In this document: in pieces, positions 9,096 through 31,765 of the stretch | Numbering within the stretch: the first letter of the stretch is position 1 | Layout of the letters: the number at the start of each line of letters is the position of its first letter | Source of the DNA: an uncultured Anaeromyxobacter sp. | Lineage (GTDB): Bacteria > Myxococcota > Myxococcia > Myxococcales > Anaeromyxobacteraceae | Direction of reading: 5' to 3' | Assembly: GCA_903904005.1 (NCBI GenBank) | Contig: CAIVAR010000185.1 | Coordinates: 17,052-81,051 of the forward strand | DNA length: 64,000 nucleotides | The notes under the pieces: generated by a model | The model's database searches: none | Seen by the model: the letters and a program-made list of their open reading frames with translations, nothing else | What the model was told of the DNA's origin: nothing | Translations under genes and position numbers: made by a program

Positions 9096-9244
9096 GGCAT
9101 GCTGCGTCGAGGCTGCGCGGCACGGGGAGCGCCCCTGCTGGGGATGGCTATCCCGTCAACGAGGCATCGCCTCGAAAGGGGCTCTCGTGGATACTCCACG
9201 CCCCGGCGGGCCTCACGTCCGCCGTTCGGAGCGGGTCGGGGGTC

Positions 9245-11605: not shown

Positions 11606-11609
11606 GGCG

Positions 11610-12386: not shown

Positions 12387-12400
12387 AGTATCGACTGCGC

Positions 12401-14050: not shown

Positions 14051-14169
14051 GGCGGGCGAGAGGTACCCTATCCGGGGGTGGGAGGATATCCGGTGATCGG
14101 GGGAGGCGAGCCGTCCAGATCGGAAGGGGGGCACCTTGACTCGTGGATGGATGCATCGGAGAAAAGGGC

Positions 14170-15840: not shown

Positions 15841-15867
15841 CCGGGAACCCCTGGCGGGGCACCCGGA

Positions 15868-17364: not shown

Positions 17365-17379
17365 CTGCGTCCGGGTCCG

Positions 17380-17925: not shown

Positions 17926-17933
17926 CCGGAGCC

Positions 17934-19406
17934 TCAGGAAGCCTCTCCCCGTCGCGAGACGGGGTTCCGGACCAGGCCGCCGATCCCCCACGGCCGCGGG
18001 AGGACGCCCCTCCAGAAGTCGAGGAGCGCGGTTCCCAGGATCGCGAGGACGGCGCCGCCGAGGATGCCCGCCACGATCAGCAGCGGGACGTTCGGCTTGG
18101 AGGGCTTCTTCGTGACCTCGGCAGGGCGGATCACGACATAGCGGTAGGCAAAGGCGGCCCGCGCGGTGTCGAGCTCGATCCGCGCGGCCTCGATGCGGCC
18201 GGCCAGGCTCTCGTACTTCTGCAGGGCGTAGTCGAGCTGGGTCCGCCAGTACTGGACCGTTTCGCTCTCCTGCTCCTTGCGGCCCTCCCTCGCGAACGCC
18301 GGGGCGACCGGCCTGCTACCGGAGGAACCTCCGGTCCGGCGCGTGTCCAGATCGGCGGCCGAACCGCCGCGAGCGGTGAGCTGGGCGAGGAGGTCCCGCT
18401 CGTCGCGACGCAACTGGGCCACCTGCGGGGAGTCCTTCTGCAGGGACTGGATGCTCTCGGTCGTGGCGACCACGAGGGGATGACTCCGGGTGTAGCTTGC
18501 CGAGAGCTCCGTGAGCTGCGACTGCAGCTCGACCAGGCGGCGCTGCCGGTACTCCTCCAGGTCCTGGAGGGCTCGCCGCTTGGCCACGAGCATCACCCGA
18601 AGGTTGGCAACCTCGGGAGAGACGGTGGCCTCGCCGTCCACGCGCGTCGGCTGCCGGGTCGCCGGGGAAGCGCGGCGGGACTCCCGCTCCTTCTCGAGCT
18701 CCGACATCGCGGTGTCGACACGCCCCCTGGCCGTCGCCGCGTGCCCCTCGAGGATGGAGATGGCCTCGGCGATCGTGGAAACCTCGATCGCGTGCCGGGT
18801 CTCGAGGAAGTTCTGCTGGGCGAGTGTGACGAGCTGGTAGGCCATCCGGGGGTCCGACCACTCGATCCCGATGGTGATGACCCCATCGCCCGTGGTGACC
18901 TTGAGCCGCTTCTCGAGGAGGTAGACCAGGGCCCGACGCTGCTCCTCCAGATCGGGCGTACCCGAGACCAGGGACGTCAGCCAGTCCTTGGCGCGGTTGA
19001 GAAACGGGCGCTCCCTCTGCCAGGCGGCGAGCAGGTCCGTCTGGTCCATCAGGACGAGGAGATTGTCCCTGCGGAGGATGGTCTCGGCGGCGGCCCGTGT
19101 CGGGGCGTCTGCATCCAGCGGGATCGAACGGTTCGGATTCCCGAGGGCAGGCATGATGAGGTTTCGGGACGCCAGGATCCGCGCCTCGGTGTAGTAGGTG
19201 CGAGGAAGGAGAACCGCCGCGGCGATGGCGATGGCGACCACCAGGACGAAGATCGTGGCCGCAAGCACGGGATGCCGGCGCGGTGCCCCGCACACGAAGA
19301 CGACGTCATGCCCGAGGGCCGGCCAGTCGAAGAGCGGTCCGTCGCCTCCCGGGGACGAAGGGGGGAAAGACGGATCGACGCGATGAAGTGGGGTGTCGTT
19401 GGCCAT
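17934..19406 (-). CDS. Polysaccharide co-polymerase (Wzz/GumC-like chain-length determinant), no kinase domain
   Basis: Start trimmed to MANDTPL. Two TMs flank a coiled periplasmic region. Clear paralogy to the N-terminal half of 2877..5936 (RRDNLLVLMDQTDLLAAW; AFAYRYVVIRPAE). Confidence 0.8.
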   Translation of the reverse strand: MANDTPLHRVDPSFPPSSPGGDGPLFDWPALGHDVVFVCGAPRRHPVLAATIFVLVVAIAIAAAVLLPRTYYTEARILASRNLIMPALGNPNRSIPLDADAPTRAAAETILRRDNLLVLMDQTDLLAAWQRERPFLNRAKDWLTSLVSGTPDLEEQRRALVYLLEKRLKVTTGDGVITIGIEWSDPRMAYQLVTLAQQNFLETRHAIEVSTIAEAISILEGHAATARGRVDTAMSELEKERESRRASPATRQPTRVDGEATVSPEVANLRVMLVAKRRALQDLEEYRQRRLVELQSQLTELSASYTRSHPLVVATTESIQSLQKDSPQVAQLRRDERDLLAQLTARGGSAADLDTRRTGGSSGSRPVAPAFAREGRKEQESETVQYWRTQLDYALQKYESLAGRIEAARIELDTARAAFAYRYVVIRPAEVTKKPSKPNVPLLIVAGILGGAVLAILGTALLDFWRGVLPRPWGIGGLVRNPVSRRGEAS

Positions 19407-19504
19407 TCCAGGAGAACTCACTCGATGTTGGCCGGCACGATAGGCGACTCCGGGCGCGAGCGCCACCCATGCGGTGAGGGGACGTCCGGGAGGCGGCGGC
19501 AGGT

Positions 19505-20974
19505 TCAGGGAGGGGGGTTCAGCACGATCACCGAGGGGGCCTCGGCCGTCGCGAATCCCGGGGGATCGTTGCGGGTGTACACCACGTTGTCGAGGGTCAC
19601 CGGGCCGGAGACGTCCCAGTAGCCGATGGCCCCGCCCGCCCCTGCCTGCTCGGGCACGGTGACGACGTTGCCGGTCATCACGGAGTTCTTGAAGGTGACC
19701 GGGCCCGAGTGGTGCATCATGAAGGCTCCCCCTGCCACCACGGCCATGTTCCGGTCGAACACCATGTCGGTCCAGATCGGCTGGATGGAACCGCTCAGGG
19801 TGTTGAAGTAGATGGCCCCTCCCTTCGACTCCGGGGAGTCGGTCGAGACCGCCCGGTTGTTGCGGAGCATGAGGCCGTTGAGGTGGAGGTCGCTGTACTT
19901 GAGGCCCGCGTAATCCTCGGGAGCGCCCGCCGTCCAGGCGGTGGCGCCGTAGACGTACAGTGCCCCGCGCGAATCGTTGTAGACCGCGTCTCCGAACGAG
20001 CGGAGTCGCGACCGGTCCTTGACGACGTTCTCGATGATGCAGTTCTCGAGGTGGTAGTCCCCCACGTCCGGCGCGGTCCCGATGGCCCCGGTTCCGTTCC
20101 AGATCCGGATCCCGTACCAGCCTGCGACCGGGTCCTCGGCGGTGAAGAGGATGTCCCGCTGGGCGGGAGAAGTCCCACGAGCGTCGATGATCCCGGGCCC
20201 CTCCATCCGGTAGTGCCCCTGGAACCGGACCTGGACCCCGGGCCGGATGGTCAGCCTGTTACCGGACGGAATGTAAACGTCCCCGAACACGCGGTAGGGA
20301 GAGCCCGCCGAGGTCCACGTCTGCGTTCGGATGGCCCCGGCCTGGACGGCCGTGCCCGTACCACCGGCGACGGTGACCGCGGCCGACCCACTTCGCGTGG
20401 GGTCGGCGACCGAGGTGGCCACCACCGTGCATACTGCCGACCAGGCGGGAGCCTGCAGGAGTCCCGAGGCGCTGATGGTTCCGCAGGAGGCCCCCTCCTT
20501 CAGCGACCAGTTCACGGTGCCGTTGGAGGCGTTGGCCACCGTCGCGGTGAACTGCTGGACCCCGGATGCGGGAACCGACGAGACCGAGGGGGTCACCGTC
20601 ACGGTGACCGGGAGCGAGGAGCCAGTGACGAGCACGGTCGCCGTGGCCCGAACGGTGGGGTCGGTGGCGCTCGCCACCACGACGTGGAAGCTTCCAGCCG
20701 CTGCCGGCGCCGTGTAGAGGCCGGATGAGGTGATCGATCCACCCGTGGAGCCCTCCTGCACCGTCCACGCGACCGACCGGACGGAGACCGGGGCACTCAC
20801 CGTGAACGTCTTCGTGGCGAGAGCGGGTACCGTCGCCGACGGGGGCTGGACGACGAGACCCGTGCCGTCCACGGGGCCCGGCCCCTCGGAGGTTCCCCCG
20901 CATCCCTGGAGAAGCCCGGCGACGAGCGAGAGACGGAGGAGCACCGCTGCGTGGCGTCGTTCGATGATGGCCAT
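19505..20974 (-). CDS. Lipoprotein: 2x Big_2 Ig-like + right-handed parallel beta-helix domain (polysaccharide lyase/hydrolase-like)
   Basis: Start trimmed to MAIIERRHAAVLLRLSLVAGLLQGCGG (lipobox). Big_2 repeats are paralogous to those of 6193..8979. The C-terminal half has beta-helix-like repeats (NCIIENV, GGAIYFN, GGAFMMHHSGPVTFKNSVMTGN, GGAIGYW). Confidence 0.75.
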   Translation of the reverse strand: MAIIERRHAAVLLRLSLVAGLLQGCGGTSEGPGPVDGTGLVVQPPSATVPALATKTFTVSAPVSVRSVAWTVQEGSTGGSITSSGLYTAPAAAGSFHVVVASATDPTVRATATVLVTGSSLPVTVTVTPSVSSVPASGVQQFTATVANASNGTVNWSLKEGASCGTISASGLLQAPAWSAVCTVVATSVADPTRSGSAAVTVAGGTGTAVQAGAIRTQTWTSAGSPYRVFGDVYIPSGNRLTIRPGVQVRFQGHYRMEGPGIIDARGTSPAQRDILFTAEDPVAGWYGIRIWNGTGAIGTAPDVGDYHLENCIIENVVKDRSRLRSFGDAVYNDSRGALYVYGATAWTAGAPEDYAGLKYSDLHLNGLMLRNNRAVSTDSPESKGGAIYFNTLSGSIQPIWTDMVFDRNMAVVAGGAFMMHHSGPVTFKNSVMTGNVVTVPEQAGAGGAIGYWDVSGPVTLDNVVYTRNDPPGFATAEAPSVIVLNPPP

Positions 20975-21163
20975 CGGGTACATTAGACAGCATCCCCGTG
21001 CCGCCCGAATCCCCCAGTGGAGTCGCATACCTGGGCGTACACGGTCGGAGGGCATCCCCGCGAGACTCCACGGGTAGGACGCAGGCCCACTCGGCCGGTT
21101 CCCCGCCGGGGCTCCCTGGATACCCGGGAGGGCCGCTCCCGCGCACGGAAAACCGGCGGGCAG

Positions 21164-22450
21164 CTACCCGCGCCGGGCCGCGCGCCAGGCGGCGCGAGGA
21201 TGGCGCAGCGTCGCCCGTGCCTCGCGCAGGACCTCGACCAGGCCCGGTGCGAGGTCCTCCGCGTCGATGCACGGGTCGGTGACCCTGCCCGCGTGCTGCC
21301 GCAGCCATCCGTTCCAGCGGGCTGCCTCGCCCGGGGGGGCCGACCCGGCGAGTCGCCGGAGGAGCAGGTGGCTGCGGAGCTGCACCCGGTTGCAGAAGGT
21401 TCGACCGGTGCGGCGCGCAGCCGCGTCCCGGGCTTCGGCGGCGACGCGGTCGAGCGCGGGCCCGTCGTCGATCGCCGCCAGATAGGCGAGGAGGGGGAGG
21501 TTCACCCCCCGGTCGACGTCGAAGGCCATCTGCCCGAAGAAGCGGGGGTTGAAATCGATGACCTGGCGTCGCCCCCCCACCTCCACGAACTCGACCTCGA
21601 ACACCCCGTCGAGCCCGACCCTGTGGCAGAGCCGCTCGACGCCTGCGGCCAGGTCGGCCAGGACCTCGGCCTCCTCGAAGCAGAGCCCCGTGCCGAGCAG
21701 TCTCGGGCGCTGCAGGATCTTGCGCGACGCCTGCACGACGAAGATCCGGCGGGCGCGGTGCACGAAGCCGCTCAGGCTGTAGATGCCCTCCGCTGCGGAC
21801 GGCGCGAAGGCCTGCAGGAGGGGACGCGCGGCACCCGGATCGATGGCCAGGAGCGCCGGCTGAACCTGCGTCGACCGACACAGGTCGGTGTAGAGCCCTC
21901 GGAGCTCGGACGCAGAGTGGACGACGCGTCCCTTCTGGTGCGGCCAGAGCCCAACCTGGGTCTGGGGCTTCACGATCAGGGGAAAGGTCGCTTCCCGGGA
22001 GAGCCGGTCCAGGGCATCGTCGTTCTCGGGAAGGGCTGTCCAGGGCGCGTCCAGGCCCGAACCCAGGCAGGCCTCCCGGAGTCGCCACTTGTTGAGGACG
22101 GAATAGACCGCTTCGAGGTCCGGGACCGCCAGCCGGAAGTGTGGCGCGAGCCTTTCCCGGTGGACGGCGAGCAACCACTCCAGTCCGTCGCTCGTGGGCA
22201 GGATCACGGTTCCGGGCATGCGCCGGCCCAGCGCGACGAGCCAGTCGACGAACGCGGCAGGAGCGGTTTCAGGGTCTGGGCAGATGGGCGTCGCGGTTGC
22301 GTGACGTGACCATCGGGCGGGCGACAGCCTTGCGGCGTCGGCGACCCACACCGCGACCCCGGCGCGGCCCAGCGCGCGCACGCCGGCGAGCGTACCGTAG
22401 TACTCCGCCATGGTGAGCAGCGCGGCCGGCCTGTCAGCAGGCATCGTCAT
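21164..22450 (-). CDS. ATP-grasp family carboxylate-amine ligase
   Basis: ATP-grasp-like layout: N-terminal Rossmann-like GVRALGRAGVAVWV, then PLIVKP, then EVEFVEVGGRRQVIDFNPRF. Start options are GTG 22468, ATG 22450 and ATG 22444. Confidence 0.75.
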   Translation of the reverse strand: MTMPADRPAALLTMAEYYGTLAGVRALGRAGVAVWVADAARLSPARWSRHATATPICPDPETAPAAFVDWLVALGRRMPGTVILPTSDGLEWLLAVHRERLAPHFRLAVPDLEAVYSVLNKWRLREACLGSGLDAPWTALPENDDALDRLSREATFPLIVKPQTQVGLWPHQKGRVVHSASELRGLYTDLCRSTQVQPALLAIDPGAARPLLQAFAPSAAEGIYSLSGFVHRARRIFVVQASRKILQRPRLLGTGLCFEEAEVLADLAAGVERLCHRVGLDGVFEVEFVEVGGRRQVIDFNPRFFGQMAFDVDRGVNLPLLAYLAAIDDGPALDRVAAEARDAAARRTGRTFCNRVQLRSHLLLRRLAGSAPPGEAARWNGWLRQHAGRVTDPCIDAEDLAPGLVEVLREARATLRHPRAAWRAARRG

Positions 22451-22623
22451 GTCGTCGGCTCCCTCCACCCGAGCGCGATGTTTACCACGAGGCTGGACCC
22501 GTGCCGACGCCTCCCGGGCGCGGCGGCGTCGGGAGGCGACCCTTGATCACGGGACTCGTTCTGGCACTCGCAATCCTGCAAATGGAGGCGCCCGGCCCCA
22601 CGCATTCGTTAGAAAGCGGTCAC

Positions 22624-23937
22624 ATGCCTGAACTGACGGTTCACCCATTCACGTCCTTCGCGGAACTGTCCTCCATCCGGGAGGAGATGGACGCCCTGAA
22701 CCTGGGAGCCCGTCGCCCCTGCCCCTTCGCAACCTTCGAGTACCTCCAGACCCTGGTGGCGCACGACGAGTACGCCCGGCCGGACGACCAGATGCTCTTC
22801 CTGGCGGTGCGTGAGGGCAGCCGGCTGGTCGGGTACCTTCCCCTGCGGCGCCGAAGGGAGCGGGTGCTGGGGGTCGAGTGCCGGCGTATCGGGATGCTCG
22901 CGGACCACGACACCGACCGGCCCGGTCTCGTCGCCCGTGCCGAGGACGAGGCGCGCTGCTGCGAGGCCGTATTTCGGCACCTCCTGACACAGGACCGGAA
23001 CTGGACCTTCCTCGAGCTTCTCTTCCAGGACGCGGAGTCCGGGCTCGACCGGCTGCCGACGATGGCGTCCGGAAGGTTCCATGTGAGGCGCTTCGAGAAC
23101 ATGCCCAACACGACCGCGCCCCTGCCGTTCCGTTCACTGAAGGAGTACTACAAGGCGCTTGGTTCTTCCCACCGCCGGAACGTGGCGAGCCGGGGACGCA
23201 AGTTGCTGCAGGCTGGAAGGGTCGAGGTGGTCGCGTCGTGCGACCCCAGGGCCCGACGCGCACTCCTCGACCTCTTCCTGGACGTCGAGCGCAGGAGCTG
23301 GAAGGAAGCTGCGCAGGCCGGGATCCGTCGCCATCCGAAACGCATGGCGTTCTACCGGGAACTCTGCGAGCCGGGCCAGCCGCTCGCGCTCGGGTTCGAC
23401 ATCGTGCTCCTCGATGGCCTGCCCGTCGCGGCAAGCATCGCGGGGAGCTTCGAGGGTACATGGTACTCGCTCGAGGTTGCCTTCGACGAGGCCTATGACG
23501 ATGTCGGTCCGGGCACGCTTCTCTGGCTCATGACCTTCGGCAGCGCCATCCAGGCGGGCGCCCGGGCCTACAACCTGGGTGGGAACTATGCGTACTACAA
23601 GTCCCGCTGGGGCGGGGTCGTGACACCCACGGCCGCCATCCAGGTGTACCGGGTCCCCAGCATCCACTGGCTGAAGGCGCGAGGTGGGGAACTTCGGCGA
23701 CGCCTCCTCGGCAGCGAGACGGCGAGTGAGAACTTCAACCCCGAGCGGCGCAAGGTGGCAGGGGCGACGGACGAGGGGAAGCCGGAGGCGGACAAGGCTG
23801 GCCCCCGTCCGGTCCGGGAGGTCGAGCGGGAGGAGGCCCGGCGGGTCCTCCACGACCTCGAGGTTGCCGGTGTACCGCTCGTTCGCGTGGCCGGGCCCGA
23901 ACTCGAGGCCATCCTCCCCTTCCAGACGAAGACCTAG
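22624..23937 (+). CDS. FemAB/CelD-like GNAT-fold acyl(aminoacyl)transferase
   Basis: Start trimmed to MPELTVHPF. About 440 aa with a C-terminal GNAT-like block (GLPVAASIAGSFEGTWYSLEVAFDEAYDDVGPGTLLW...YNLGGNYAYYKSRWGG), typical of the CelD/BioF2-like/FemAB-related family. It is divergent from the ATP-grasp gene. Confidence 0.7.
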   Translation: MPELTVHPFTSFAELSSIREEMDALNLGARRPCPFATFEYLQTLVAHDEYARPDDQMLFLAVREGSRLVGYLPLRRRRERVLGVECRRIGMLADHDTDRPGLVARAEDEARCCEAVFRHLLTQDRNWTFLELLFQDAESGLDRLPTMASGRFHVRRFENMPNTTAPLPFRSLKEYYKALGSSHRRNVASRGRKLLQAGRVEVVASCDPRARRALLDLFLDVERRSWKEAAQAGIRRHPKRMAFYRELCEPGQPLALGFDIVLLDGLPVAASIAGSFEGTWYSLEVAFDEAYDDVGPGTLLWLMTFGSAIQAGARAYNLGGNYAYYKSRWGGVVTPTAAIQVYRVPSIHWLKARGGELRRRLLGSETASENFNPERRKVAGATDEGKPEADKAGPRPVREVEREEARRVLHDLEVAGVPLVRVAGPELEAILPFQTKT

Positions 23938-23970
23938 GACCTCCCGACGTCGAGCCGAGCCGAGGGACCC

Positions 23971-25125
23971 ATGCCCCGATTCTCCGTCCTGATGCCGACA
24001 TACAACCGCGCAGACGTCATCGGACGTTCGATCGAGAGCGTCCGGGCGCAGACGTTCGGCGACTTCGAGTTCATCGTCGTCGACGACGGATCCACGGACG
24101 GGACGAAGGACCTGATCGCTGGGTCCGACCCCAGGCTCCGCGTGATCGTCCAGGAGAACCGGGGGCTCCCCGGGGCCAGGAACACGGGACTCGCGGCCGC
24201 GAAGGGGGACCTCATCGCCTTCATCGACTCGGATGACGAGTGGACCCCTCACCACCTCCGCCTGGCGTCGGCGTTCTTCGAGGCCTTCCCGCGGGAACAC
24301 GCGCTCACGTCCGAGTTCTGGGAGGATTTCGGCAACCAGAACTACCTGAAGCACTTCCGGGTCGAGACCTCGGACTGGTATCCGGAGACGGCCCGGCGAA
24401 TCGGGTCCTCAGCATTCACCCAGCAGCCACCGAATGGCGACCCCTATCTCTGGTTCTACCAGCAGCGGACCGAGGTGGGCGACTGGGCCCGGGATGCGCT
24501 CCAGGAGTCGCCGTTCCCCCGGCCCCACCACTATTCGGGACGGATCTTCCAGGGGTGGCGCTGGGGCTGGCTGATGGCCATGCAACCGACGGTCATCACG
24601 CGCCACGCCATGGAGACGCTCGGCCCCCAGGACACGAACTCACCGGCCGCATCCGACTTCGGCTACCTCGCGGCGCTCTGCCGGGAGTTCCCGATGAACA
24701 TGCTGTCGATTCCGGGCTGCATCAAGCACGAATACGGAATCGGAAAGAAGCGGATCGCGGAGGACCACATCGTCACGGGCCGGGCCGCCGTCAGGTTTCA
24801 CCGGGAAGTTCTCCGCTACCTGGATCTCTTCTACCTGTCGGCAGCGCCCGACGACCCGGAACTGATGGCCCTGCGTGCGTTCCGGCAGTTCCTGGTCGGC
24901 AAGGCGGCGCTCTCGAAGGGGGAGCGGGACGTCGCGCTCGCCAATCTGTCGAGCGCAGCCAGGCACTACCCCGGCACGGACGTGGCGGCGCTGCTCTGGC
25001 TGGCTCGCCTGATTCCCAGCGGGGCACTTGCGGCCCTCGCGTACCGTGCAGGGCTCGACGCGGCAGCGATTCCCGAACGCATTCGCCGCCGCGCGGCCCG
25101 AGTCCTCGGAGCCTCGGGTAGGTGA
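23971..25125 (+). CDS. GT2 glycosyltransferase
   Basis: FSVLMPTYNRADVIGRSIESV...FIVVDDGSTDGT...AFIDSDDEW (GT-A DxD). Confidence 0.85.
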   Translation: MPRFSVLMPTYNRADVIGRSIESVRAQTFGDFEFIVVDDGSTDGTKDLIAGSDPRLRVIVQENRGLPGARNTGLAAAKGDLIAFIDSDDEWTPHHLRLASAFFEAFPREHALTSEFWEDFGNQNYLKHFRVETSDWYPETARRIGSSAFTQQPPNGDPYLWFYQQRTEVGDWARDALQESPFPRPHHYSGRIFQGWRWGWLMAMQPTVITRHAMETLGPQDTNSPAASDFGYLAALCREFPMNMLSIPGCIKHEYGIGKKRIAEDHIVTGRAAVRFHREVLRYLDLFYLSAAPDDPELMALRAFRQFLVGKAALSKGERDVALANLSSAARHYPGTDVAALLWLARLIPSGALAALAYRAGLDAAAIPERIRRRAARVLGASGR

Positions 25126-26042
25126 CCACCGGGTCGAAATTGTGGAAACGAGGAGTCGGTCTCCTCCTGGGTACGCTGGCGCTCGCCACCGTCGCGGTGC
25201 CCGTCCGCTCCGCACTGCTCGCGAGGGCCGACCTTCACCCGACCCGGCAACCCGTGCGGTCGCTCCAGGGCCGGGCGGACCTGGCGGGTTTCCAACCGGT
25301 CGCTTTTTCGGCGGCGGACGGGGTGGGGATCCGTGGGTGGTGGCTTCCTCCCCGGAACGGGTCGGCCATCATCCTGGTCCACGGGTGGGGCGAGAGCCGG
25401 GAGCAGATGGTTCCGCAAGCGTTGATGCTGGCCCGCCATGGATTCGGCGTTCTCGCATTCGACCTTCGGGCGCACGGGGAGAGCGGAGGTGAACTCTCCA
25501 CGTCCGGAGACCAGGAGCGGCGGGACGTGCGGGCGGCCATCGACTTCGCGGCGACGCGGCCAGACGTCGGCCCGGGGAGCATCGGTATCGTCGGGTTCTC
25601 CATCGGTGCGCTGGCCGCCGCCGACGTGGCCATCGATGACGGCCGCGTCGCGGCCATCGTGCTCGAGGCGATGCACGGGAGCCTGGAGGAGCTGGTGATC
25701 CACGACTACGGGGCACACGGATTCCTCACGGAGTTGCCGGCCCGGTGGACGTACAGGGCCAGTGGCGTCGATGTCGCCGACCTGGCGCCCGGAGAGCGGA
25801 TCTGCGGACTGGCTCCCAGGCCACTGCTGCTCATCTACGGTGAACGGGATCCGGAAGCGCCCGTGGGCGAAGGTCGCCAGGTCCTGGCCCGGAGTTGCGG
25901 GCCGGCGAGCATGTGGGTGGTCCCCGGCGGCGGCCACGGTGGGTGGAGTGGGGACGAAGTGGGTGCCCTGGAGGCCCGTCTGGTGACCTTTTTCAGCGAG
26001 AGCCTGGCATCTCGAGAAGTCCATCGGAGGAACGGCCTGTGA
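25122..26042 (+). CDS. Membrane-anchored alpha/beta-fold hydrolase
   Basis: GTG start overlaps the upstream stop (GTGA). N-terminal anchor GVGLLLGTLALATVAV. HGWGES, nucleophile elbow GFSIG, and later GERD and GGGH supply the acid and His candidates. Confidence 0.8.
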   Translation: MTTGSKLWKRGVGLLLGTLALATVAVPVRSALLARADLHPTRQPVRSLQGRADLAGFQPVAFSAADGVGIRGWWLPPRNGSAIILVHGWGESREQMVPQALMLARHGFGVLAFDLRAHGESGGELSTSGDQERRDVRAAIDFAATRPDVGPGSIGIVGFSIGALAAADVAIDDGRVAAIVLEAMHGSLEELVIHDYGAHGFLTELPARWTYRASGVDVADLAPGERICGLAPRPLLLIYGERDPEAPVGEGRQVLARSCGPASMWVVPGGGHGGWSGDEVGALEARLVTFFSESLASREVHRRNGL

Positions 26043-27487
26043 GCAAGCGCGAGCACCGGAAGAAGGCCTGGTCGAGTGGGCGCGACTGGGTGAAGAAGAT
26101 CGTCCGTCCGGTGGCCAAGGCTGCCTTGCCGAAGGGCCGCGAACTGCAGCCCGAGGAATGGCGTCTGGAGCGGGCGCCGGACGGCGCCCTCTCCCTCGGG
26201 CAGGTGGAACTGCGCGCGCTGTTCGAGAAATGGGGATCGCCGCTCCACGTGGTGGATGGGGAACGCCTGGACGAGAACGCGGCGCGCTTCATGGCCCGCC
26301 CCCCTGCCGCGGCCGGCTCGTGCGAGGCCTATTACTCCTACAAGACGAATCCGGTTCCCGGAGTCCTCCGGAGACTTCACGAGCGGGGTATGGGTGCGGA
26401 GGTGGTGAGCGCCTACGAGCTCTGGCTTGCCCTCCGGCTCGGCGTGCCACCTGGGAGGATCGTCTACAACGGTCCCGCAAAGTCGCCGGAGTCGGTCATC
26501 GAGGCCGTGCGGCGCGAGATCGGACTGCTCAACGTGAACTCCAGGGCCGAACTGGCCCTGCTGGCGGCGACGGCGCGGCAGCTCGGGAAGCGACCGAGGA
26601 TCGGTATTCGTGTCACCCTTCCCGGGGGCTGGTCCGGTCAGTTCGGGGAGAAGGTCCAGACCGGGGCCGCGATGGAGGCCTTCCGGGAGGCCCTCGCGAT
26701 GCCGGATCTGGATGTCGTGGCGCTGCACTGTCACCTCGGCGGCGAGATCGCATCCCTCGATCGGCTCGATTTCCTGCTTTCCGGAGTGCTCGCCTTCGCC
26801 GACGAGCTCCGCGCACGCCTCGGACTGGACCTGGAAATCCTCGACCTGGGAGGGAGCCTGGCGTGCCCGACGGTCGGACCCCGTCAGCGTCGAGCGAGCC
26901 GCGTGGCGGAGGCCCTGGGCCTCCAGCTCCCCCCGCGACCTCCCGAGGACGTGCTCGGCATCGACGCCTACGTCGCGAGGATCCGGGAAAGGGTGGAGGG
27001 GCAGTTCACGGCCAAGGGGCGAGCCACCCCGCGAGTCTTCCTGGAGCCAGGGCGCGCTGCGACCGGCAATACGCAGTTCCTGCTCTGCCGGGTGGTGCGC
27101 TTACGCGAGCCCGAACCCTCAGGGCTCGCCTGGGCCGTTCTCGACGCCGGGATCAACGTCGCGGACGCCGCGCGAAGCGAGTCCCATCAGGTGTTCGCCA
27201 TTGCCCCGCGGCCCGGCAGTTCGCGGAGGCCCTATCGTCTGGTCGGTCCGACCTGTACACCGGGTGACGTTCTCTACGGGGCATGCATGCTGCCCGAGCT
27301 CGAGGAGGGAGACGGGCTGGCCATCATGGACGCCGGAGCCTACTTCGTGCCGTACTCGACGTCCTTCTCGTATCCCCAGCCGGGCGTGATCCTGATCGAG
27401 CGCGGTCGTGTCGAGCCGATCCGCCGGATCGAGCGGTTCGAGGACATCGTTCGTCGCGACATCCTGCCGGAGGATCCGGGCCCCTGA
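26039..27487 (+). CDS. PLP-dependent decarboxylase, Orn/DAP/Arg decarboxylase (fold-type III) family
   Basis: GTG start overlaps the upstream stop (GTGA). PLP-Lys motif YYSYKTNP, HCHLGG, LDLGGSL, and substrate-site VGPTCTPGDVL. Confidence 0.85.
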   Translation: MSKREHRKKAWSSGRDWVKKIVRPVAKAALPKGRELQPEEWRLERAPDGALSLGQVELRALFEKWGSPLHVVDGERLDENAARFMARPPAAAGSCEAYYSYKTNPVPGVLRRLHERGMGAEVVSAYELWLALRLGVPPGRIVYNGPAKSPESVIEAVRREIGLLNVNSRAELALLAATARQLGKRPRIGIRVTLPGGWSGQFGEKVQTGAAMEAFREALAMPDLDVVALHCHLGGEIASLDRLDFLLSGVLAFADELRARLGLDLEILDLGGSLACPTVGPRQRRASRVAEALGLQLPPRPPEDVLGIDAYVARIRERVEGQFTAKGRATPRVFLEPGRAATGNTQFLLCRVVRLREPEPSGLAWAVLDAGINVADAARSESHQVFAIAPRPGSSRRPYRLVGPTCTPGDVLYGACMLPELEEGDGLAIMDAGAYFVPYSTSFSYPQPGVILIERGRVEPIRRIERFEDIVRRDILPEDPGP

Positions 27488-27577
27488 CGGGGACCGCTGG
27501 GGGGCAGCGCATCCTTGGCGCGTGCGCCCGAAAGGCGAGCGGAGCAAGCCCAACGCGTCAAGTCCTCGCCCGTGACG

Positions 27578-29107
27578 CTAGATGCCCCGCAGGCGGCGGA
27601 GTCGGTCGCGAAGCGACCTGGACATGCCAACCCCGTCCAGGACCCTGCTCACGACGTTTCGCAGGCGAACGGGCTCCGGTGGATTGATCGGCTCCATGAG
27701 CACCTCCGGCCAGAGGCGTTCGATCAGGCGACGAAGGAAGACGTGGTCGGGTGGCCTGCGCTCGCCCTCGTCCACGGTGAGCATCCCCATGACCAGGTGG
27801 CGGCTGTTGAGCGGCGAGAAGGAGTCCTGGACGATGTCGAACTCGGACCGGATGAGCGCTTGCCATCTGCCCACCATCTGCTCCCAGCAGAAGAGGTCGA
27901 GCAGGTGGATAGGCCCAGCCCTCGGAGCTCCCGCCAGCCAGAACTCGAAGGCACGGATTGCAAAGGGATGCGAACCCGCGCGGCACAGGGAGGCAAGGCC
28001 ATGCGGCGTCAGCGGCTCCCCTTCGCCGCCGGTGTTCCGATAAAGGCACTTCACGACCTCGGCCACGTCGCCCGTGATGCAGAGGCGGCCAGGGGGGCTT
28101 CCCTCCAGGAGGGCCTGGGCTTCCACGAAGCTCGTTTCCTTCGCCGACGGGTTGGCCTCGCGACACGCCGAGTCGAAGGACCCGTCGATACGGGCGGGTG
28201 GCAGGAGGAGCCTGTGCGCCATCCCCAGCCTGGAAAGGAGACGGGCCGGGATGGTGTGATCTGGAATGTCGCGCGGGGAGAAATGGTAGGCCAGCGTGAA
28301 GGAGTAGAGCCGATCCCGGTGCGGGCGCCCCAGGGCGAGCGTGAGGCGGCTGTCCCACCCCGCCGTCATGGAGAGCGCCAGGGGGTAGCGACGAGCCGCT
28401 GCCTCGACGGTCCTTTCCAGGATCCGCGCGCTCTCTGCCACGGGGTCGTTCCATCGGGGCAGCTCGGTCTCGCTGGTCGGCCAGTACCGATGCGCCGTGC
28501 CCTGGTCGAGGTCGAGGTAGTGATTGGGGAGGAGGGCGCGAATCCCCTCGAAGAGCGACGTGTCACCCGGCAGCCAGTAGGTCCGGCAGCCCGGCGAGCA
28601 CATGGAGTCGCGAGCCTCGGGATCGATGGAGGCGTCCAGCGCGGTGGCGAGCAAGCCGGGCTGGGAAGCGCAACGGATCCCCTCGGATGCGGCCCGCCGG
28701 CCGTAGTAGACCGATCGCTGTCCTCCCGCGTCGTGGAACAGGATCGAGCGCCGCTCGTCCATGGCCAGGAGCGCCCACCGGCCACCCAGCATGTTCGTGA
28801 GCTCCGGGAGACGGACCGCGTCGTCCATTTCCCGCAGCAGTCGCTCGAGGATGTCGAGGCTCGTCGCGGCCGGGTCCTCCGGGTCCAGCAGGAAGCCCAG
28901 CAGCGTCAACGAACGCCCGCCCGCAACGGCTCTGTGAAACTCGAGATCCGGGTGGATCGTCAACGCGAACTTGTCCGTGAGTTGAACGCGGTGCCAGCCC
29001 TCGAGTCCACCCAGGGGGGTCGGGCCAAGGAAGAACTGCCTCCTGAACCTGAGCCCCTCGGTCCGGGCATCGGACTCGACTGGCCTGTTGGGAGACCGGC
29101 CGGTCAT
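27578..29107 (-). CDS. Asparagine-synthetase-like (AsnB-fold) adenylating enzyme lacking the N-terminal catalytic Cys
   Basis: N-domain block GGRWALLAMDERRSILFHDAGGQRSVYY resembles the AsnB glutaminase-domain fold, but the protein starts MTGRSPN with no Cys2. The C-domain has a degenerate PP-loop LSMTAGWDSR in place of SGGxDS. Confidence 0.7.
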   Translation of the reverse strand: MTGRSPNRPVESDARTEGLRFRRQFFLGPTPLGGLEGWHRVQLTDKFALTIHPDLEFHRAVAGGRSLTLLGFLLDPEDPAATSLDILERLLREMDDAVRLPELTNMLGGRWALLAMDERRSILFHDAGGQRSVYYGRRAASEGIRCASQPGLLATALDASIDPEARDSMCSPGCRTYWLPGDTSLFEGIRALLPNHYLDLDQGTAHRYWPTSETELPRWNDPVAESARILERTVEAAARRYPLALSMTAGWDSRLTLALGRPHRDRLYSFTLAYHFSPRDIPDHTIPARLLSRLGMAHRLLLPPARIDGSFDSACREANPSAKETSFVEAQALLEGSPPGRLCITGDVAEVVKCLYRNTGGEGEPLTPHGLASLCRAGSHPFAIRAFEFWLAGAPRAGPIHLLDLFCWEQMVGRWQALIRSEFDIVQDSFSPLNSRHLVMGMLTVDEGERRPPDHVFLRRLIERLWPEVLMEPINPPEPVRLRNVVSRVLDGVGMSRSLRDRLRRLRGI

Positions 29108-29679
29108 GACACGCCTACGACACCCGGCCGGAGGTCGGGGCTGGTCGATGACTCACCCGCGAGGGCAGCACGGTGGAAGGTGACCCAGCGTTCAGTCCAT
29201 CGGAAGATCAGCGCCAGGTGGGTCACGGGACAGGACAGGTCGACACGCACGTCACGCAGCCGTTTCTGGACGGCCTCGAACTCGGCACGGGTGAGGCCGT
29301 GAGCAAGGGTCGCGTGAAGCTTGTAATCGGTCCCCCGCTCCAGCGCGTACGGCTCCACCCCGAAGCGATCATTTACCTGCGCCACCACCTGCCGCCGGAG
29401 TGCTTCCAGTTCTCCGTCGTGGTCGACGCCGAGGTAGGCGAAGCCTTCGGGAAAGAACCCGATGCCGTTGAACCGGAGGGTGAAGGGCCGGATGGAGAGG
29501 GCAAGGTCGGCGACGTGTCGGGCGAACGGACGAACGTCGGGTGCGAAGAAGCCGAGCTTCAGCGTCACGTGCGGCGGAGCGGAGAGCCCCAGGTTGACGC
29601 CGAATTCCTCCAGGATCTCGAGTTGCAGGCCGCGCATGAAGTTGTGCACCTCGTCACCGAGGAGCACGACATAGGCCAT
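29104..29679 (-). CDS. 2H phosphoesterase superfamily protein (LigT/cyclic phosphodiesterase-like)
   Basis: Two H-x-T-x motifs (PHVTLKLG and LHATLAHG) at the spacing expected for the 2H fold. The stop overlaps the downstream start (ATGA). The start is uncertain: ATG 29679 (MAYVVLLGD) is preferred, with upstream options at 29790 and 29838. Confidence 0.7.
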   Translation of the reverse strand: MAYVVLLGDEVHNFMRGLQLEILEEFGVNLGLSAPPHVTLKLGFFAPDVRPFARHVADLALSIRPFTLRFNGIGFFPEGFAYLGVDHDGELEALRRQVVAQVNDRFGVEPYALERGTDYKLHATLAHGLTRAEFEAVQKRLRDVRVDLSCPVTHLALIFRWTERWVTFHRAALAGESSTSPDLRPGVVGVS

Positions 29680-29899
29680 CTGGAAGGAAGGTCCAGGGCT
29701 GGGCGGAAGCCGCAGCAGCCGGTTCCTGAACTTGCGGACGATCCGGCCGACCCTCGTCACTCTCCAGTGGGGCAATCCGGTCGAGTTCATTGAGAGGGCC
29801 GCACGCCGATCCAGGACGAAGGACCGAATACCTCGCACGGTGGCGTCGGCGGTGTCAATTCCGCCGGCGTCTCCGTGCGAGGAAGCGTTCCGCCCTCGT

Positions 29900-31393
29900 T
29901 TACTGCGCCGCGAAGGTCCCGCAAGTCGTGGTCACGGTCGCCGCGAACGCCAGCTGCCCGGTCGCGTTCACGGTCCCGCTGCCCGGCGTCACCGCGACCG
30001 AGAGCACCTTCTCCGCACCCACCGTGATGGTCGCCTGGATCGTCTTGGTGGGGTCGGCCTGGCTGACGGCCATGACGTGGTAGGTGCCGGCGGTGGTCGG
30101 CGCGAAGTAGGCGCCGTTCGTGATCGTCCCGCCGCCTGCCTCGACGACCGACCAGGTCACCGCAGAGTTGGAGGAGTTGGTGATCGTGGCCGTGAATACC
30201 TGACCCATGCACGCGTCCAACGTCGCGGTGGTCGGGCTGATGGCGATGGTGACCGGCGGGGCCGTCACGGTGACCGTGGCGGTGGACTTCTTGGAGGTGT
30301 CGGCAATGCTGGTGGCGGTGACGGTGTAGGTGCCGGGGGTGGCGGGTGCCACGTAGACGCCGGTGGTGGCGCCGATGGAGCCCGAGCCGGCCGGGACCGA
30401 CCAGGTCGCGGCCGTGGACTGGCCGGCCGAGGTCCCGGAGACGGTGGCGGTGAAGGTGACGGTGCCGCCGGTCAGGATGGACGCCGTCCCCGGAGCGACG
30501 CTGACGGCGATGACCGGAGCCGCGGTGACCGTGACCGTGGCGGTCGAGGTCCCGGAAGGTGTCGCGACGCTGGTGGCGGTGACCGTGTACGTGCCGGGGG
30601 TGGCCGGAGCGACGTAGACGCCGGTGGTCGCGCCGATGGTGCCGGCGCCGGCGGGAACCGACCAGGTCACGGCCGTGGACTCGCCCGTCGTGGTGCCCGT
30701 GACAGTGGCGCTGAAGGTCGTCGTGCCGCCCGTGAGAATGGAGGCGGAGCCCGGGGAGATGGCGACGACGTGGGGCGGGGGAGGGGTCACGGTGACGGTT
30801 GCGCTTCCGCTCTTCGTCGTGTCGGCGGCGCTGGTGGCCACCACGGTGCACGTCGCTCCGGCGTTCGGCGCCGTGTAGACGCCGCCCGACGAGATCGACC
30901 CGCAGCTCGAGCCCTGCTGGACCGTCCAGGTGACCGTGAGGTTGGTCGTGCCGGCGACGGCAGCGGCGAAGACCTTCGTGCCGCTGGCCGGCACGGTGGC
31001 GGTTGCGGGATCGACCGCCACCGACACCTGCGCCGCCGCGCCCTTCTTCACCCGCACCACGCTCGACCCGTTGCTCTTGGAGGAAGCGACGCTCACGGCA
31101 CGGACGTGGAAGGTGCCATCGATGGCCGGCGCCGTGTACAGGCCGGTCGCGTCGACCGTTCCTCCATCTGCCTCCGCGACCTGCCAGGTCACCGAGCCGT
31201 CGGCGGTGCCGGTCACCTGGGCGCCGAACTTCACCGTTCCACCCGGGGCGACGTCCGCCTCGGCGGGGGAAGTGGCCACGACGATCGCCTGGCCAGCCGG
31301 TGGTGTCCCGCCCGTCGTGTCGGAGGTGGAGCCTCCACAGGCGGCGGTGAAGAGAGCGGCGATTGCGAGAGCGACGATCGATCGGTGCGTCAT
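29900..31393 (-). CDS. Lipoprotein made of six tandem Big_2 Ig-like domains
   Basis: Start trimmed to MTHRSIVALAIAALFTAACGG (lipobox). Six repeats of about 85-90 aa each contain ...VTW(S/T)V...G.(Y/V)(T/V)AP...GT(Y/F).V.A(T/V)S... No catalytic domain is evident. Confidence 0.8.
   Translation of the reverse strand: MTHRSIVALAIAALFTAACGGSTSDTTGGTPPAGQAIVVATSPAEADVAPGGTVKFGAQVTGTADGSVTWQVAEADGGTVDATGLYTAPAIDGTFHVRAVSVASSKSNGSSVVRVKKGAAAQVSVAVDPATATVPASGTKVFAAAVAGTTNLTVTWTVQQGSSCGSISSGGVYTAPNAGATCTVVATSAADTTKSGSATVTVTPPPPHVVAISPGSASILTGGTTTFSATVTGTTTGESTAVTWSVPAGAGTIGATTGVYVAPATPGTYTVTATSVATPSGTSTATVTVTAAPVIAVSVAPGTASILTGGTVTFTATVSGTSAGQSTAATWSVPAGSGSIGATTGVYVAPATPGTYTVTATSIADTSKKSTATVTVTAPPVTIAISPTTATLDACMGQVFTATITNSSNSAVTWSVVEAGGGTITNGAYFAPTTAGTYHVMAVSQADPTKTIQATITVGAEKVLSVAVTPGSGTVNATGQLAFAATVTTTCGTFAAQ
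30308..30829. repeat. Two near-identical 261-bp tandem DNA units (30308..30568 and 30569..30829) inside the 6x Big_2 gene, followed by more diverged copies
   Basis: gctggtggcggtgac(g/c)gtgta(g/c)gtgccgggggtggc...acgtagacgccggtggt.gcgccgatgg recurs with exact 261-nt (87-codon) periodicity. At protein level GATTGVYVAPATPGTYTVTATS is repeated exactly. Confidence 0.85.
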
Positions 31394-31765
31394 TTGGTGA
31401 AGCCTCCCGTCAGCGAAAACTTCCTTCGTCGCCGAGGTCCCCTCCCCGGGTGACGAGCCATCCAAGGACAAGATATGTCCTCGCGCGTCACACCGTAAGG
31501 CCCTGAAGAGGCAGGGTTTTTCGCCTTCATCGCCGCACATGGTCTTGAACTGTGTGTCCTGGGCCTACCGGGATCCCGGGAAGGCCGATGGCCGTGAATC
31601 GGCGATATCGGACTTCTGCACAACCCCCGAACGAACTCCCCCGTTTGAAGGTACCTTCCGGCCCCTCTAACCCTTGACCCACCGCGTCGCGATCGGGGAA
31701 ACTGCGCGGTCCGCCGCGCGGCATTCGGGCCTCGCGACAAGGGTTTTCCGAGGGTGACAAGCGAG

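Follow-up and report, generated by a model that had tools for sequence, protein, structure and literature searches.

What does a group of amide-forming enzymes do at the distal end of an exopolysaccharide (EPS) locus? This question is raised by a stretch of 64,000 nucleotides of DNA from an uncultured Anaeromyxobacter sp. (hereafter the window), in which seven neighbouring genes encode an ATP-grasp ligase, a Fem-type transferase with tandem GNAT domains, a family 2 glycosyltransferase (GT2), an alpha/beta hydrolase, a fold-III decarboxylase dependent on pyridoxal phosphate (PLP), an AsnB-like adenylating enzyme and a 2H phosphoesterase. The sequence-only reading of this block had likened it to the accessory set of exosortase-type (XrtA/PEP-CTERM) EPS loci, and had proposed that it couples an amine to a sugar carboxylate or to an acyl substituent. 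Here, we propose that this variable accessory block decorates the EPS with amino-acid-derived amide or amine groups by means of two modules, including one step dependent on aminoacyl-tRNA, a reading to which we give about an even chance.

The accessory block as a composite of two modules

The window has a GC content of about 70%, and its genes were chosen by codon-position GC. All eight genes named by the sequence-only reading (the seven above and a lipoprotein gene next to the 2H gene) were found where it had placed them, by their sequence and by a third-position GC (GC3) of coding type, 0.84-0.88, and each of its family calls was borne out by fold or profile evidence. The GTGA overlaps at the GT2/hydrolase and hydrolase/decarboxylase junctions, the first of which couples the GT2 translationally to the hydrolase through its stop codon, were both read in the DNA, as was the ATGA overlap between the 2H and AsnB-like genes; the GNAT and GT2 genes are separated by 33 nt, with no overlap. 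The catalytic motifs of the decarboxylase, the 2H phosphoesterase, the hydrolase and the GT2 are intact.

For the comparison with other loci, we distinguish module A (21164-27487), consisting of the ATP-grasp gene and the divergent GNAT, GT2, hydrolase and decarboxylase genes, from module B (27578-29679), consisting of the 2H phosphoesterase and the AsnB-like enzyme; the combination of 2H, AsnB-like and Fem-type GNAT genes is referred to as the triad. Co-conservation outside this genome, on which the sequence-only reading depended, held only in part: the seven genes never recur as one block, but two modules are conserved separately. Modules A and B stand together only in the window and, in variant forms, in three further loci, L010, L016 and L115. 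The adjacency of the decarboxylase and ATP-grasp genes, the recurrent GNAT-GT2-decarboxylase operon and the 2H/AsnB fusions, all described below, indicate at the same time that the genes are functionally linked and not chance neighbours. Judged by gene linkage, the block is a composite of two independently recurring modules.

The variant loci illustrate how the block changes. Specifically, L010, a metagenome-assembled genome (MAG) of the Anaeromyxobacteraceae, is syntenic with the window (L010:1-13097 against window 15868-31540), and its Wzx, EpsC-like protein, polysaccharide co-polymerase (PCP), lipoproteins and window-type ATP-grasp are 71-88% identical to their counterparts, whereas its GNAT, AsnB-like and 2H proteins are only 37-46% identical. 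In this locus the GT2, hydrolase and decarboxylase genes are missing, an ATP-grasp_4 gene of the L-amino-acid-ligase type is present, and the 2H gene follows the window-type ATP-grasp. Because the flanks are conserved while the core has diverged or been replaced, the core of the cassette has been swapped at a fixed position of the EPS locus. L016:9341-19573 (Actinomycetota MAG) and L115:8001-17369 (metagenome contig) both carry a 2H-AsnB fusion, an Acetyltransf_6 GNAT, a Wzx-like protein, an ATP-grasp_4 and two fold-III decarboxylases with 42-44% identity, and have no glycosyltransferase nearby; L016 also contains a PCP-like gene. The theme common to these loci and to the other contexts of the triad is a Fem-type transferase together with at least one ATP-dependent carboxylate-amine ligase, with or without an amine-generating decarboxylase.

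The decarboxylase and ATP-grasp pair of module A

The decarboxylase of the window matches both domains of its family above cut-off (PF02784, 100.4 bits; PF00278, 52.1 bits) and retains the PLP-binding lysine (YSYKTN), the EPGR motif and the catalytic cysteine (GPTC). Its best NCBIfam model is lysA (TIGR01048), with 207.5 bits, below the cut-off of 297.9. In the alignment with the LysA structures 2p3e and 1twi, 'GPICETGD'/'GGLCESSD' stand opposite 'GPTCTPGD', the CE(S/T) being changed to CTP, and 'DLIRPSIY' stands opposite the non-conserved 'VADAARSES', with loss of the RPxxY; an insert of about 50 residues relative to LysA is found at about 277-330. CE(S/T) and RPxxY are what we take, from the LysA structures, to be the substrate-binding motifs of that enzyme. 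The sequence-only reading had held that an active site matching diaminopimelate (DAP) decarboxylase exactly would point to the housekeeping enzyme; instead, CTP is found and RPxxY is lost. Because of the sub-threshold TIGR01048 score and the lost substrate motifs, the protein is predicted to be a competent decarboxylase but not the housekeeping LysA or a DAP decarboxylase. Its relatives in the PDB include BtrK, a decarboxylase of Glu bound to an acyl carrier protein (ACP), and N-citrylornithine decarboxylase, which act on tethered amino acids, and the FslC model is matched with 123 bits (cut-off 500).

The ATP-grasp protein, taken as a single sequence, remains below the Pfam cut-off (ATPgrasp_Ter, 22.6 against 29.1) and is likewise weakly matched by NCBIfam. 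A profile built from 22 homologs matches the ATP-grasp domains of carbamoyl-phosphate synthetase (CPS) and biotin carboxylase in the PDB, with a best value of 8.8e-12. The superfamily is therefore recognisable, and no specific subfamily could be assigned in the Pfam, NCBIfam and PDB profile searches.

The association of the two genes was followed in 80 metagenome loci, with the decarboxylase as anchor. A window-type ATP-grasp (34-54% identity) is present in 33 of the 49 loci whose decarboxylase is at least 44% identical to that of the window, and in none of the 31 loci with more distant decarboxylases. Where at least 1.5 kb of sequence is available on both flanks, the ATP-grasp gene lies within 600 bp of the decarboxylase in 11 cases out of 14. 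In L112, a single open reading frame (ORF) of 898 aa holds both enzymes as an apparent fusion, and in L113 the GNAT, decarboxylase and ATP-grasp genes form a compact operon. The pairs of other lineages adjoin GT4, WecG, Wzx, epimerase and methyltransferase genes. An AsnB-like or 2H gene was found in none of the 80 loci.

The Fem-type GNAT and the operon that it heads

The GNAT protein matches PF13480 with 74.9 bits, against a cut-off of 22; its start is ambiguous between 22501, 22543 and 22624. No meaningful sequence match was found in the PDB by single sequence or by profile, so that fold comparison alone is informative. The AlphaFold2 (AF2) model has a pLDDT of 94, and the top Foldseek matches, with TM scores of 0.6-0.69, are FemX (7z6a, 1ne9 and 6snr, from Weissella and Staphylococcus aureus), FemA (1lrz), the streptothricin aminoacyl-tRNA-dependent peptide synthases Sba18/Sbb17, and the aminoacyl-phosphatidylglycerol (aminoacyl-PG) synthase domain of MprF. 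Tandem GNATs acting on acyl-CoA reach TM scores of only 0.3-0.5.

GNAT homologs (43-58% identity) head GNAT-GT2-decarboxylase operons in L036, L111, L112 and L114, as well as the operon of L113, which has no GT2. In the first four loci the three genes are co-directional, with identities of 46-56% for the GNAT, 55-63% for the GT2 and 50-58% for the decarboxylase, so that the arrangement recurs in myxobacterial loci at 46-63% identity; in L111 it lies inside a syntenic EPS-type locus and in L114 it adjoins a Bac_transf priming transferase. In three other loci, L037, L045 and L046, the position of the GNAT is taken by a homolog of the ATE_N/ATE_C aminoacyl-tRNA-protein transferases. Because of the Fem-type fold match and of this replacement, aminoacyl-tRNA is our best guess for the acyl donor of the GNAT, which we regard as a putative aminoacyl-tRNA-dependent transferase.

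A gene for a class I Glu/Gln-tRNA synthetase and a GT4 gene lie two genes from the ATE-like gene in L037 and L045 (L037:3776-8705). This synthetase was considered as a marker of the donor amino acid and is not relied on, as L037 and L045 are syntenic and the gene is possibly a housekeeping copy.

The GT2 matches PF00535 with 120.6 bits, contains a DSD motif and is the best-conserved gene of the operon. A more diverged GT2 that clusters with it (cluster c4, outside the tblastn matches) stands directly upstream of the decarboxylase in four further loci (L037, L045, L066 and L067). At the N-terminus of the hydrolase, a K/K/R stretch precedes a hydrophobic segment, and the nucleophile elbow reads GFSIG; from these features the enzyme probably faces the periplasm. 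Homologs with 43-44% identity are found in the decarboxylase/ATP-grasp loci L037, L045 and L046, and because it is absent from L111-L114 the hydrolase seems to be an optional part of the module.

Module B: a glutaminase-dead AsnB-like enzyme and its 2H partner

The AsnB-like protein has no Pfam match, scores 31.8 bits with TIGR01536 (cut-off 267.1) and has no meaningful sequence match in the PDB. Its AF2 model (pLDDT 92, pTM 0.90) matches over the full length, at E values of about 1e-13 in Foldseek, carbapenam synthetase (1q15), beta-lactam synthetase (1jgt/1mbz), TsnB9 (7ylz) and AsnB (1ct9). The PP-loop, T248-A-G-W-D-S-R254, is invariant among homologs. The sequence-only reading had called this protein 'Cys-less', which is right for the N-terminal nucleophile (the protein starts with MTGRS) and wrong for the chain as a whole, which has 8 cysteines. 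Because the PP-loop is kept and the N-terminal cysteine is absent, the protein is predicted to be an adenylating enzyme unable to use glutamine. Its 2H partner matches PF13563 with 77.5 bits (cut-off 27), and both HxT motifs are present: in the numbering of the long ORF, HVTL (residue 90) and HATL (residue 175).

The AsnB-like family comprises 616 clusters at 50% identity (E<=1e-30), and its closer relatives (41-49% identity) come from Verrucomicrobiota, Beta-proteobacteria (Sphaerotilus, Leptothrix), Myxococcota, Chloroflexota and Actinomycetota. Among the 120 homologs listed, none has a Pfam match to the AsnB-like domain, fusion proteins matching only 2H or DUF models, and those with names are nearly all called 'hypothetical'. 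Weak matches to the lasso-type macrolactam cyclase model NF033561 were found in 15 of 50 homologs, and P0330, a distant member, shows a weak PF00733 match of 25.5 bits.

With the AsnB-like gene as anchor, 25 genome loci were compared, about 20 of which have usable flanks. In all of the latter (about 20 of 20), a 2H gene is the direct neighbour of the AsnB-like one. Six phyla or more share the pair (Verrucomicrobiota, Pseudomonadota, Myxococcota, Chloroflexota, Actinomycetota and Acidobacteriota), and in at least 20 loci it is followed by a gene for a Fem-type GNAT. By contrast, conservation across the 25 loci does not extend to the GT2, hydrolase, decarboxylase or window-type ATP-grasp genes. 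The 2H domain is N-terminal to the AsnB-like domain in one ORF in L013 and L016 (two phyla), P0054, P0094 and P0200, and C-terminal in P0204; with both domain orders, these are independent fusion events. As to context, in L028 and L030 the triad is surrounded by genes for Wzx, Wzy, a GT2, a deacetylase and a UDP-sugar dehydrogenase, and in some Beta-proteobacteria it stands alone.

Other architectures of the AsnB-like family were also noted: an N-terminal domain of the ornithine-cyclodeaminase family in P0218, a C-terminal PAS domain in P0208 and a C-terminal methyltransferase in P0211. P0116, a fused 2H-AsnB-like protein with a faint DUF1045 match in its 2H part, is encoded near LPG_synthase_TM (MprF flippase-type) and CapC-like genes. 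A role in defence of the 2H/PP-loop pair was considered and dropped, as no PADLOC defence model matched among six cassette proteins.

The EPS core locus and the surroundings of the block

Upstream of the block, at about 1-21 kb, the window contains a polysaccharide locus of the Wzx/Wzy type, akin to the EPS pathway of Myxococcus xanthus. Its genes encode an EpsY-like outer-membrane polysaccharide export (OPX) protein, a GT2, a PCP-Wzy fusion, a GH18+GDSL protein, a hexapeptide-FkbH protein, a hexapeptide transferase, an EpsD-EpsC-like fusion, a GH44 protein, Wzx and EpsC. EpsC is the only NCBIfam Eps model that was passed (185.3 bits, above the cut-off of 150). EpsD (356.6 against 370), Wzy_EPS (409.7 against 670), EpsV (NF041864; 317.1 against 800) and EpsY (248.5 against 320) remain below their cut-offs, though they are the best-matching models of the respective core proteins. 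These scores suggest a related Wzx/Wzy locus and not an orthologous copy of the M. xanthus EPS locus.

The EpsV-like PCP, with two transmembrane segments and a coiled coil, and the lipoprotein next to it (17934-21055 together) are 73-77% identical in L010 and join the block to the EPS core. The accessory block is the distal part of the EPS-type locus. The M. xanthus EPS pathway (EpsZ, Wzx, Wzy, EpsV, EpsY, EpsC, EpsD and others) follows a Wzx/Wzy logic (PMC7484181), which the core of the window shares, and the EpsC, EpsD, Wzy_EPS, EpsV and EpsY models match that core with the scores given above. In the description of this pathway neither 'decarboxylase' nor 'ATP-grasp' occurs (PMC7484181); because it names no such enzyme, the accessory block would be an addition to the EPS pathway as described.

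Several core proteins have unusual architectures. The 860-aa product of 9023-11605 (+) joins a hexapeptide acyltransferase to an FkbH (HAD-IIIC) domain, and its homolog in L111 (49% identity) lies directly downstream of the decarboxylase. The Wzy of 1,019 aa (2877-5936, -) carries an EpsV-like PCP domain at its N-terminus, and the 593-aa product of 12401-14182 (-) is an EpsD-like GT2 joined to an EpsC-like hexapeptide acyltransferase. The GH18+GDSL protein (6193-8979, -) and the GH44 protein (14143-15840, +) are encoded inside the biosynthetic locus; homologs of GH44 and GH18 are also found in L034, and of GH44 in L111. An FkbH/ACP module had been read upstream of the block: the FkbH domain is confirmed by TIGR01686 (261.5 bits, cut-off 146.65), but the ACP was not found, as the window holds no PP-binding match in Pfam and no phosphopantetheine-site motif in any credible ORF.

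On the other side of the block, the lipoprotein encoded on the same strand as the 2H gene has an AAC lipobox. It had been described as '6x Big_2'; Ig-like repeats are indeed present, as five full G.Y.AP repeats and a partial sixth with a spacing of 87 aa. Because it is 71% identical in the syntenic L010, this lipoprotein is part of the conserved flank and not of the variable core. From gltB (31754) onward the genes are housekeeping and regulatory and unrelated to the locus. A step in GC3 separates the EPS locus and block (2877-31540, 0.84-0.92) from 31754-64000 (0.94-0.97), and could mean that the EPS locus was horizontally acquired or is lowly expressed. A tRNA scan found no tRNA gene in the window, Rfam at a permissive threshold found no RNA element or T-box in 20.5-32 kb, and scanned promoter and terminator signals were at or below shuffle expectation. 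The features are collected in Table 1.

Table 1. Position, strand and basis of assignment of the features of the window discussed in the text.
Feature	Position	Strand	Basis or remark
ATP-grasp carboxylate-amine ligase (predicted), module A	21164-22468	-	Divergent from GNAT operon; homolog profile against PDB
Fem-type tandem-GNAT transferase (CelD/BcsL / Acetyltransf_6), putatively aminoacyl-tRNA-dependent	22501/22543-23937	+	PF13480, AF2 model
GT2 glycosyltransferase, C-terminal extension of about 250 aa	23971-25125	+	PF00535
Alpha/beta hydrolase, membrane-anchored or secreted	25122-26042	+	Abhydrolase_1, Hydrolase_4, S9/S15
Fold-III (LysA-like) PLP decarboxylase	26039-27487	+	PF02784, PF00278
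AsnB-fold adenylating amide synthetase (predicted), glutaminase-dead, module B	27578-29107	-	AF2 model and Foldseek
2H (LigT-like) phosphoesterase, module B	29104-29679/29838	-	PF13563
Ig-like-repeat lipoprotein (context)	29900-31393/31540	-	PKD, Big_2, I-set
EpsV-like polysaccharide co-polymerase (conserved flank)	17934-19466	-	NF041864 EpsV
Ig/beta-helix lipoprotein (conserved flank)	19505-21055	-	
Myxococcus-EPS-type Wzx/Wzy core locus	951-17991	.	Pfam, NCBIfam, partial synteny with L111

Proposed function of the block

The amine- or acyl-coupling interpretation of the sequence-only reading survives in so far as three distinct amide-forming enzyme types and an amine-generating decarboxylase do occur in the block; its link to the exosortase set does not. 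In the scheme that we propose, the GT2 would add a sugar which carries, or is needed for, the decoration, and the ATP-grasp and the LysA-like decarboxylase, as a coupled pair, would install an amine-terminated group. The two steps could come in either order. In one order, the side chain of an amino acid would be tethered to a carboxylate and the alpha-carboxyl group then removed, as with BtrJ/BtrK and N-citrylornithine decarboxylase; in the other, decarboxylation would come first and ligation second, as with Cj1436/Cj1438C of Campylobacter. The Fem-type GNAT would then move an amino acid from aminoacyl-tRNA onto the free amine, or possibly onto a hydroxyl, and the anchored alpha/beta hydrolase would trim or remove the substituent outside the cytoplasm. 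As for module B, the AsnB-like enzyme is expected to adenylate a carboxylate and to close the amide with an amine other than glutamine-derived ammonia (cf. beta-lactam synthetase and the lasso cyclases), and its 2H partner may hydrolyse a phosphodiester, probably of cyclic or nucleotide type, on the same substrate or on a co-substrate.

A number of observations weigh against this scheme. Since no module B gene occurs in the loci anchored on the decarboxylase, the case for a functional link between modules A and B depends on their adjacency in the window, L010, L016 and L115. The decarboxylase/ATP-grasp pair is not obligate, because L111 and L114 have no ATP-grasp within 10 kb and L010 has its ATP-grasp without a decarboxylase, and in the ORF of L112 one internal high-scoring segment pair aligns in another frame, so that the fusion is only apparent. 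Likeness to the Fem fold is by itself no proof of a tRNA donor, and between the GNAT of the window and those of triads in other phyla the identity is no more than 13-20%. Searches of the window with Pfam and NCBIfam revealed neither a UDP-sugar dehydrogenase nor anything else that would obviously supply a carboxylate on the glycan to act as acceptor. The loci compared are nearly all MAGs or metagenome contigs with ORFs called by GC3, and those of the groups L037/L045/L046 and L016/L115 are mutually syntenic and hence not independent. Finally, some contexts would fit a free small molecule: the operon of L113 lies among unrelated genes, away from polysaccharide genes; in L029:8270-13602 the triad is found alone between two genes for PhnD-like (Phosphonate-bd) binding proteins of ABC transporters; and in Verrucomicrobiota the triad is followed by a protein with the A-T-TE order of nonribosomal peptide synthetases (NRPS) and by an aminotransferase.

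In the Verrucomicrobiota loci, the NRPS-like protein has about 1,300 aa with weak C, A, T and TE matches (L003, L004, L008, L012-L014, L017-L019, L022 and L024), and the aminotransferase, of class I/II (AONS-like), follows it in L004, L012 and L024; this arrangement looks like a small-molecule cluster.

Alternative explanations

The contexts just described, with the absence of glycosyltransferases near the triad, the decarboxylases and the ATP-grasp in L016 and L115, favour the explanation that the product of the cassette, or of each module, is a free small molecule, for instance a modified di- or oligopeptide amide, an acyl-polyamine, an osmolyte or a siderophore-like compound, the EPS neighbourhood being incidental or providing a Wzx-like exporter. 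The closest characterised relatives of the decarboxylase other than LysA (FslC, BtrK and DokD) serve small-molecule pathways, and the neighbours of the AsnB fold (beta-lactam and carbapenam synthetases, TsnB9 and the lasso cyclases) are all natural-product enzymes. The N-acetylglutaminylglutamine amide (NAGGN) 'trio' of an AsnB-type amidotransferase, a GNAT/ATP-grasp protein and a peptidase follows the same enzyme logic, and its product is a free dipeptide amide. Nevertheless, we hold this explanation to be rather improbable: the GT2 is translationally coupled and is the best-conserved gene of the operon in four other loci, polysaccharide contexts recur in Myxococcota, Acidobacteriota and other lineages, the core swap of L010 within a conserved EPS locus is typical of surface-glycan diversification, and even the cluster of L016 is accompanied by Wzx and PCP homologs. 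A target in another part of the envelope, that is a membrane lipid, a lipid-linked precursor or peptidoglycan, modified by MprF- or Fem-like aminoacylation with its own turnover hydrolase, appears less probable still. The GNAT model fits the aminoacyl-PG synthase of MprF and the peptidoglycan Fem transferases about equally, and the neighbourhood of P0116 would agree with such a target. Operons of aminoacyl-PG synthases include hydrolases, one of which is anchored on the periplasmic face (PMC6103681), in parallel to the hydrolase of the window. Against this, the GNAT has no MprF-type membrane or flippase domain, a GT2 belongs to its operon, the operon is part of an EPS locus, and none of the known systems that aminoacylate lipids or peptidoglycan has anything like the decarboxylase/ATP-grasp pair.

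Two further explanations concern the nature of the block as a whole. That it is a relative of the XrtA/PEP-CTERM EPS accessory set, with the exosortase encoded elsewhere, is suggested by the same list of superfamilies beside an EPS locus (Fem-type GNAT, fold-III decarboxylase, alpha/beta hydrolases and AsnB fold) and by sub-threshold scores: 101.7 bits for the decarboxylase with TIGR03099 (cut-off 478.45; the better of two stretches, residues 48-279), 30.1 and 31.4 bits for the hydrolase with TIGR03100 and TIGR03101 (cut-offs 168.45 and 202.75), 77 bits for the PCP with pepcterm_ChnLen and 119 bits for the OPX with pepcterm_export, both also below cut-off. The resemblance, however, stays at the superfamily level, the defining hidden Markov models all being missed widely, 2- to 6-fold in bit score. 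The window GNAT does not match TIGR03019 at E<=0.01, and only 2 of 52 homologs touch this model (best E 4.7e-4); the exosortase-type amidotransferase models match none of 50 AsnB-like homologs, and the AsnB-like protein is without the glutaminase cysteine of working amidotransferases. TIGR03104, which the sequence-only reading had counted among the exosortase families, is the N-acetylglutaminylglutamine 'trio' amidotransferase in NCBIfam, and is matched weakly by one of those 50 homologs. As that reading had rightly stated, the 64-kb window lacks both an exosortase gene and PEP-CTERM-like tails (Pfam and NCBIfam on GC3-supported genes; tail search), and the fit of the core locus is closer to the Myxococcus Wzx/Wzy EPS models than to those of the XrtA system. 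The AsnB-like enzyme of the window, unlike the amidotransferases of the XrtA set, is glutaminase-dead, and an ATP-grasp and a 2H phosphoesterase are not part of that set; the logic that the two share may reflect convergence or a distant relationship. As a claim of membership, this explanation seems largely refuted by these comparisons, and we consider it very unlikely. Even harder to believe is a chance neighbourhood, in which a housekeeping lysA and unrelated enzymes sit beside an EPS locus with no shared pathway: the lysA model is the best NCBIfam match of the decarboxylase, but a sub-threshold one to a protein that has lost the substrate motifs, stop/start overlaps are present, and the same pairs and triples, with fusions, recur in dozens of loci of several phyla.

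Significance of the proposed amino-acid decoration of the EPS

Amide-linked amino acids or amines on surface glycans alter charge, antigenicity and matrix properties, and the responsible enzymes have been identified for only a handful of systems, the Campylobacter capsule among them. The present analysis corrects a tempting assignment of the block to the exosortase accessory set and defines two recurrent and tractable gene modules in its place. Module A predicts an aminoacyl-tRNA-dependent step in the decoration of an exopolysaccharide; module B points to a large family of AsnB-fold enzymes, glutaminase-dead and spread over several phyla, whose members each have a 2H phosphoesterase as partner and which no Pfam model covers. 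Close relatives differ in the core of the cassette while its position stays fixed, as would be expected of surface structures undergoing diversification. The presence of homologs annotated from Myxococcus and from MAGs of the Myxococcaceae suggests that the predictions could be testable in a genetic model.

Comparison with known systems

Literature searches found nothing that describes either module, the family pairings or an aminoacyl-tRNA-dependent step on an exopolysaccharide, nor a demonstrated aminoacyl-tRNA-dependent transfer to a glycan or glycan-substituent acceptor; a lead on glycine in the Myxococcus spore coat gave nothing usable. The block was therefore compared with systems that share some of its parts.

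The AsnB-like enzyme shares with the beta-lactam and carbapenam synthetases and the lasso cyclases the two-domain AsnB fold, the PP-loop and the lack of an N-terminal cysteine nucleophile, and its chemistry is expected to be of the beta-lactam synthetase type, that is adenylation of a carboxylate followed by attack of an amine of the substrate. It is, however, only 13-16% identical to these enzymes; its 2H partner, obligate and fused in both orders, has no counterpart in those systems, and neither lasso B or E proteins nor clavam or carbapenem genes occur around it.

The Fem/MprF transferases (FemX, FemA and FemB, Sba18/Sbb17 and MprF) share the tandem-GNAT fold with the GNAT of the window and are its top structural matches, and the ATE-type replacement in L037, L045 and L046 points to the same donor chemistry. 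Hydrolases encoded together with aminoacyl-tRNA-dependent transferases, one of them anchored on the periplasmic face (PMC6103681), are a further precedent for the scheme proposed here. In contrast, the GNAT of the window shows no sequence similarity that could be detected to Fem or MprF proteins of solved structure, belongs to a family annotated CelD/BcsL, and would have a glycan or a glycan substituent as acceptor.

BtrJ/BtrK of butirosin and FslC of rhizoferrin synthesis offer a precedent for a LysA-like decarboxylase which works outside lysine biosynthesis and is paired with an ATP-dependent ligase. BtrJ is the partner of BtrK, and the order of their steps is the first of the two given above; the adjacency and apparent fusion of the decarboxylase and the ATP-grasp fit sequential action of this kind, as in BtrJ/BtrK and FslC. 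The window decarboxylase has only low identity to BtrK and FslC, with scores far below the family cut-offs, and their pathways build small molecules on an ACP or citrate scaffold, whereas the window has no ACP that we could find.

For the decoration of a surface glycan, the relevant precedent is the glucuronamide decoration of the HS:2 capsule of Campylobacter jejuni, in which a PLP decarboxylase provides the amine, an ATP-grasp enzyme amidates a carboxylate of the growing glycan after incorporation of the sugar, and a phosphatase completes the group (PMC11800397, PMC11800379). The genes concerned are Cj1436 (decarboxylase) and Cj1437 (transaminase), Cj1438 (a GT2 with a C-terminal ATP-grasp amidoligase) and Cj1435 (phosphatase). 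The window links the same kinds of enzyme (GT2, decarboxylase, ATP-grasp, hydrolytic enzymes) in a similar manner, and the resemblance is functional only. Cj1436 has a PLP fold other than III and acts on serine phosphate, whereas the decarboxylase of the window is of fold III. Cj1438C is a TupA-like ATP-grasp (PMC11800379), and the ATP-grasp of the window has no TupA-type match, only the weak ATPgrasp_Ter and CPS-like ones. The Campylobacter system has no Fem-type GNAT, AsnB-like enzyme or 2H phosphoesterase, and the capsule depends on an ABC transporter, whereas the locus of the window is of the Wzx/Wzy type, with no uronic-acid source seen in the window.

In conclusion, the kind of system to which the block would belong, namely the enzymatic amide or aminoacyl decoration of a surface glycan, is known. 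Going further, we suggest tentatively, and with more doubt than confidence, that charged tRNA serves to aminoacylate the polysaccharides secreted by Myxococcota and other phyla, on an amine handle built by an ATP-grasp/decarboxylase pair, a class not yet demonstrated, and that the triad is a separate, widespread amide-forming system with new chemistry (at least 616 clusters in at least six phyla, with a core enzyme that has no Pfam model), in which an intermediate of the AsnB-like adenylation, linked to a nucleotide or tRNA (cyclic phosphate), may be what the 2H phosphoesterase processes.

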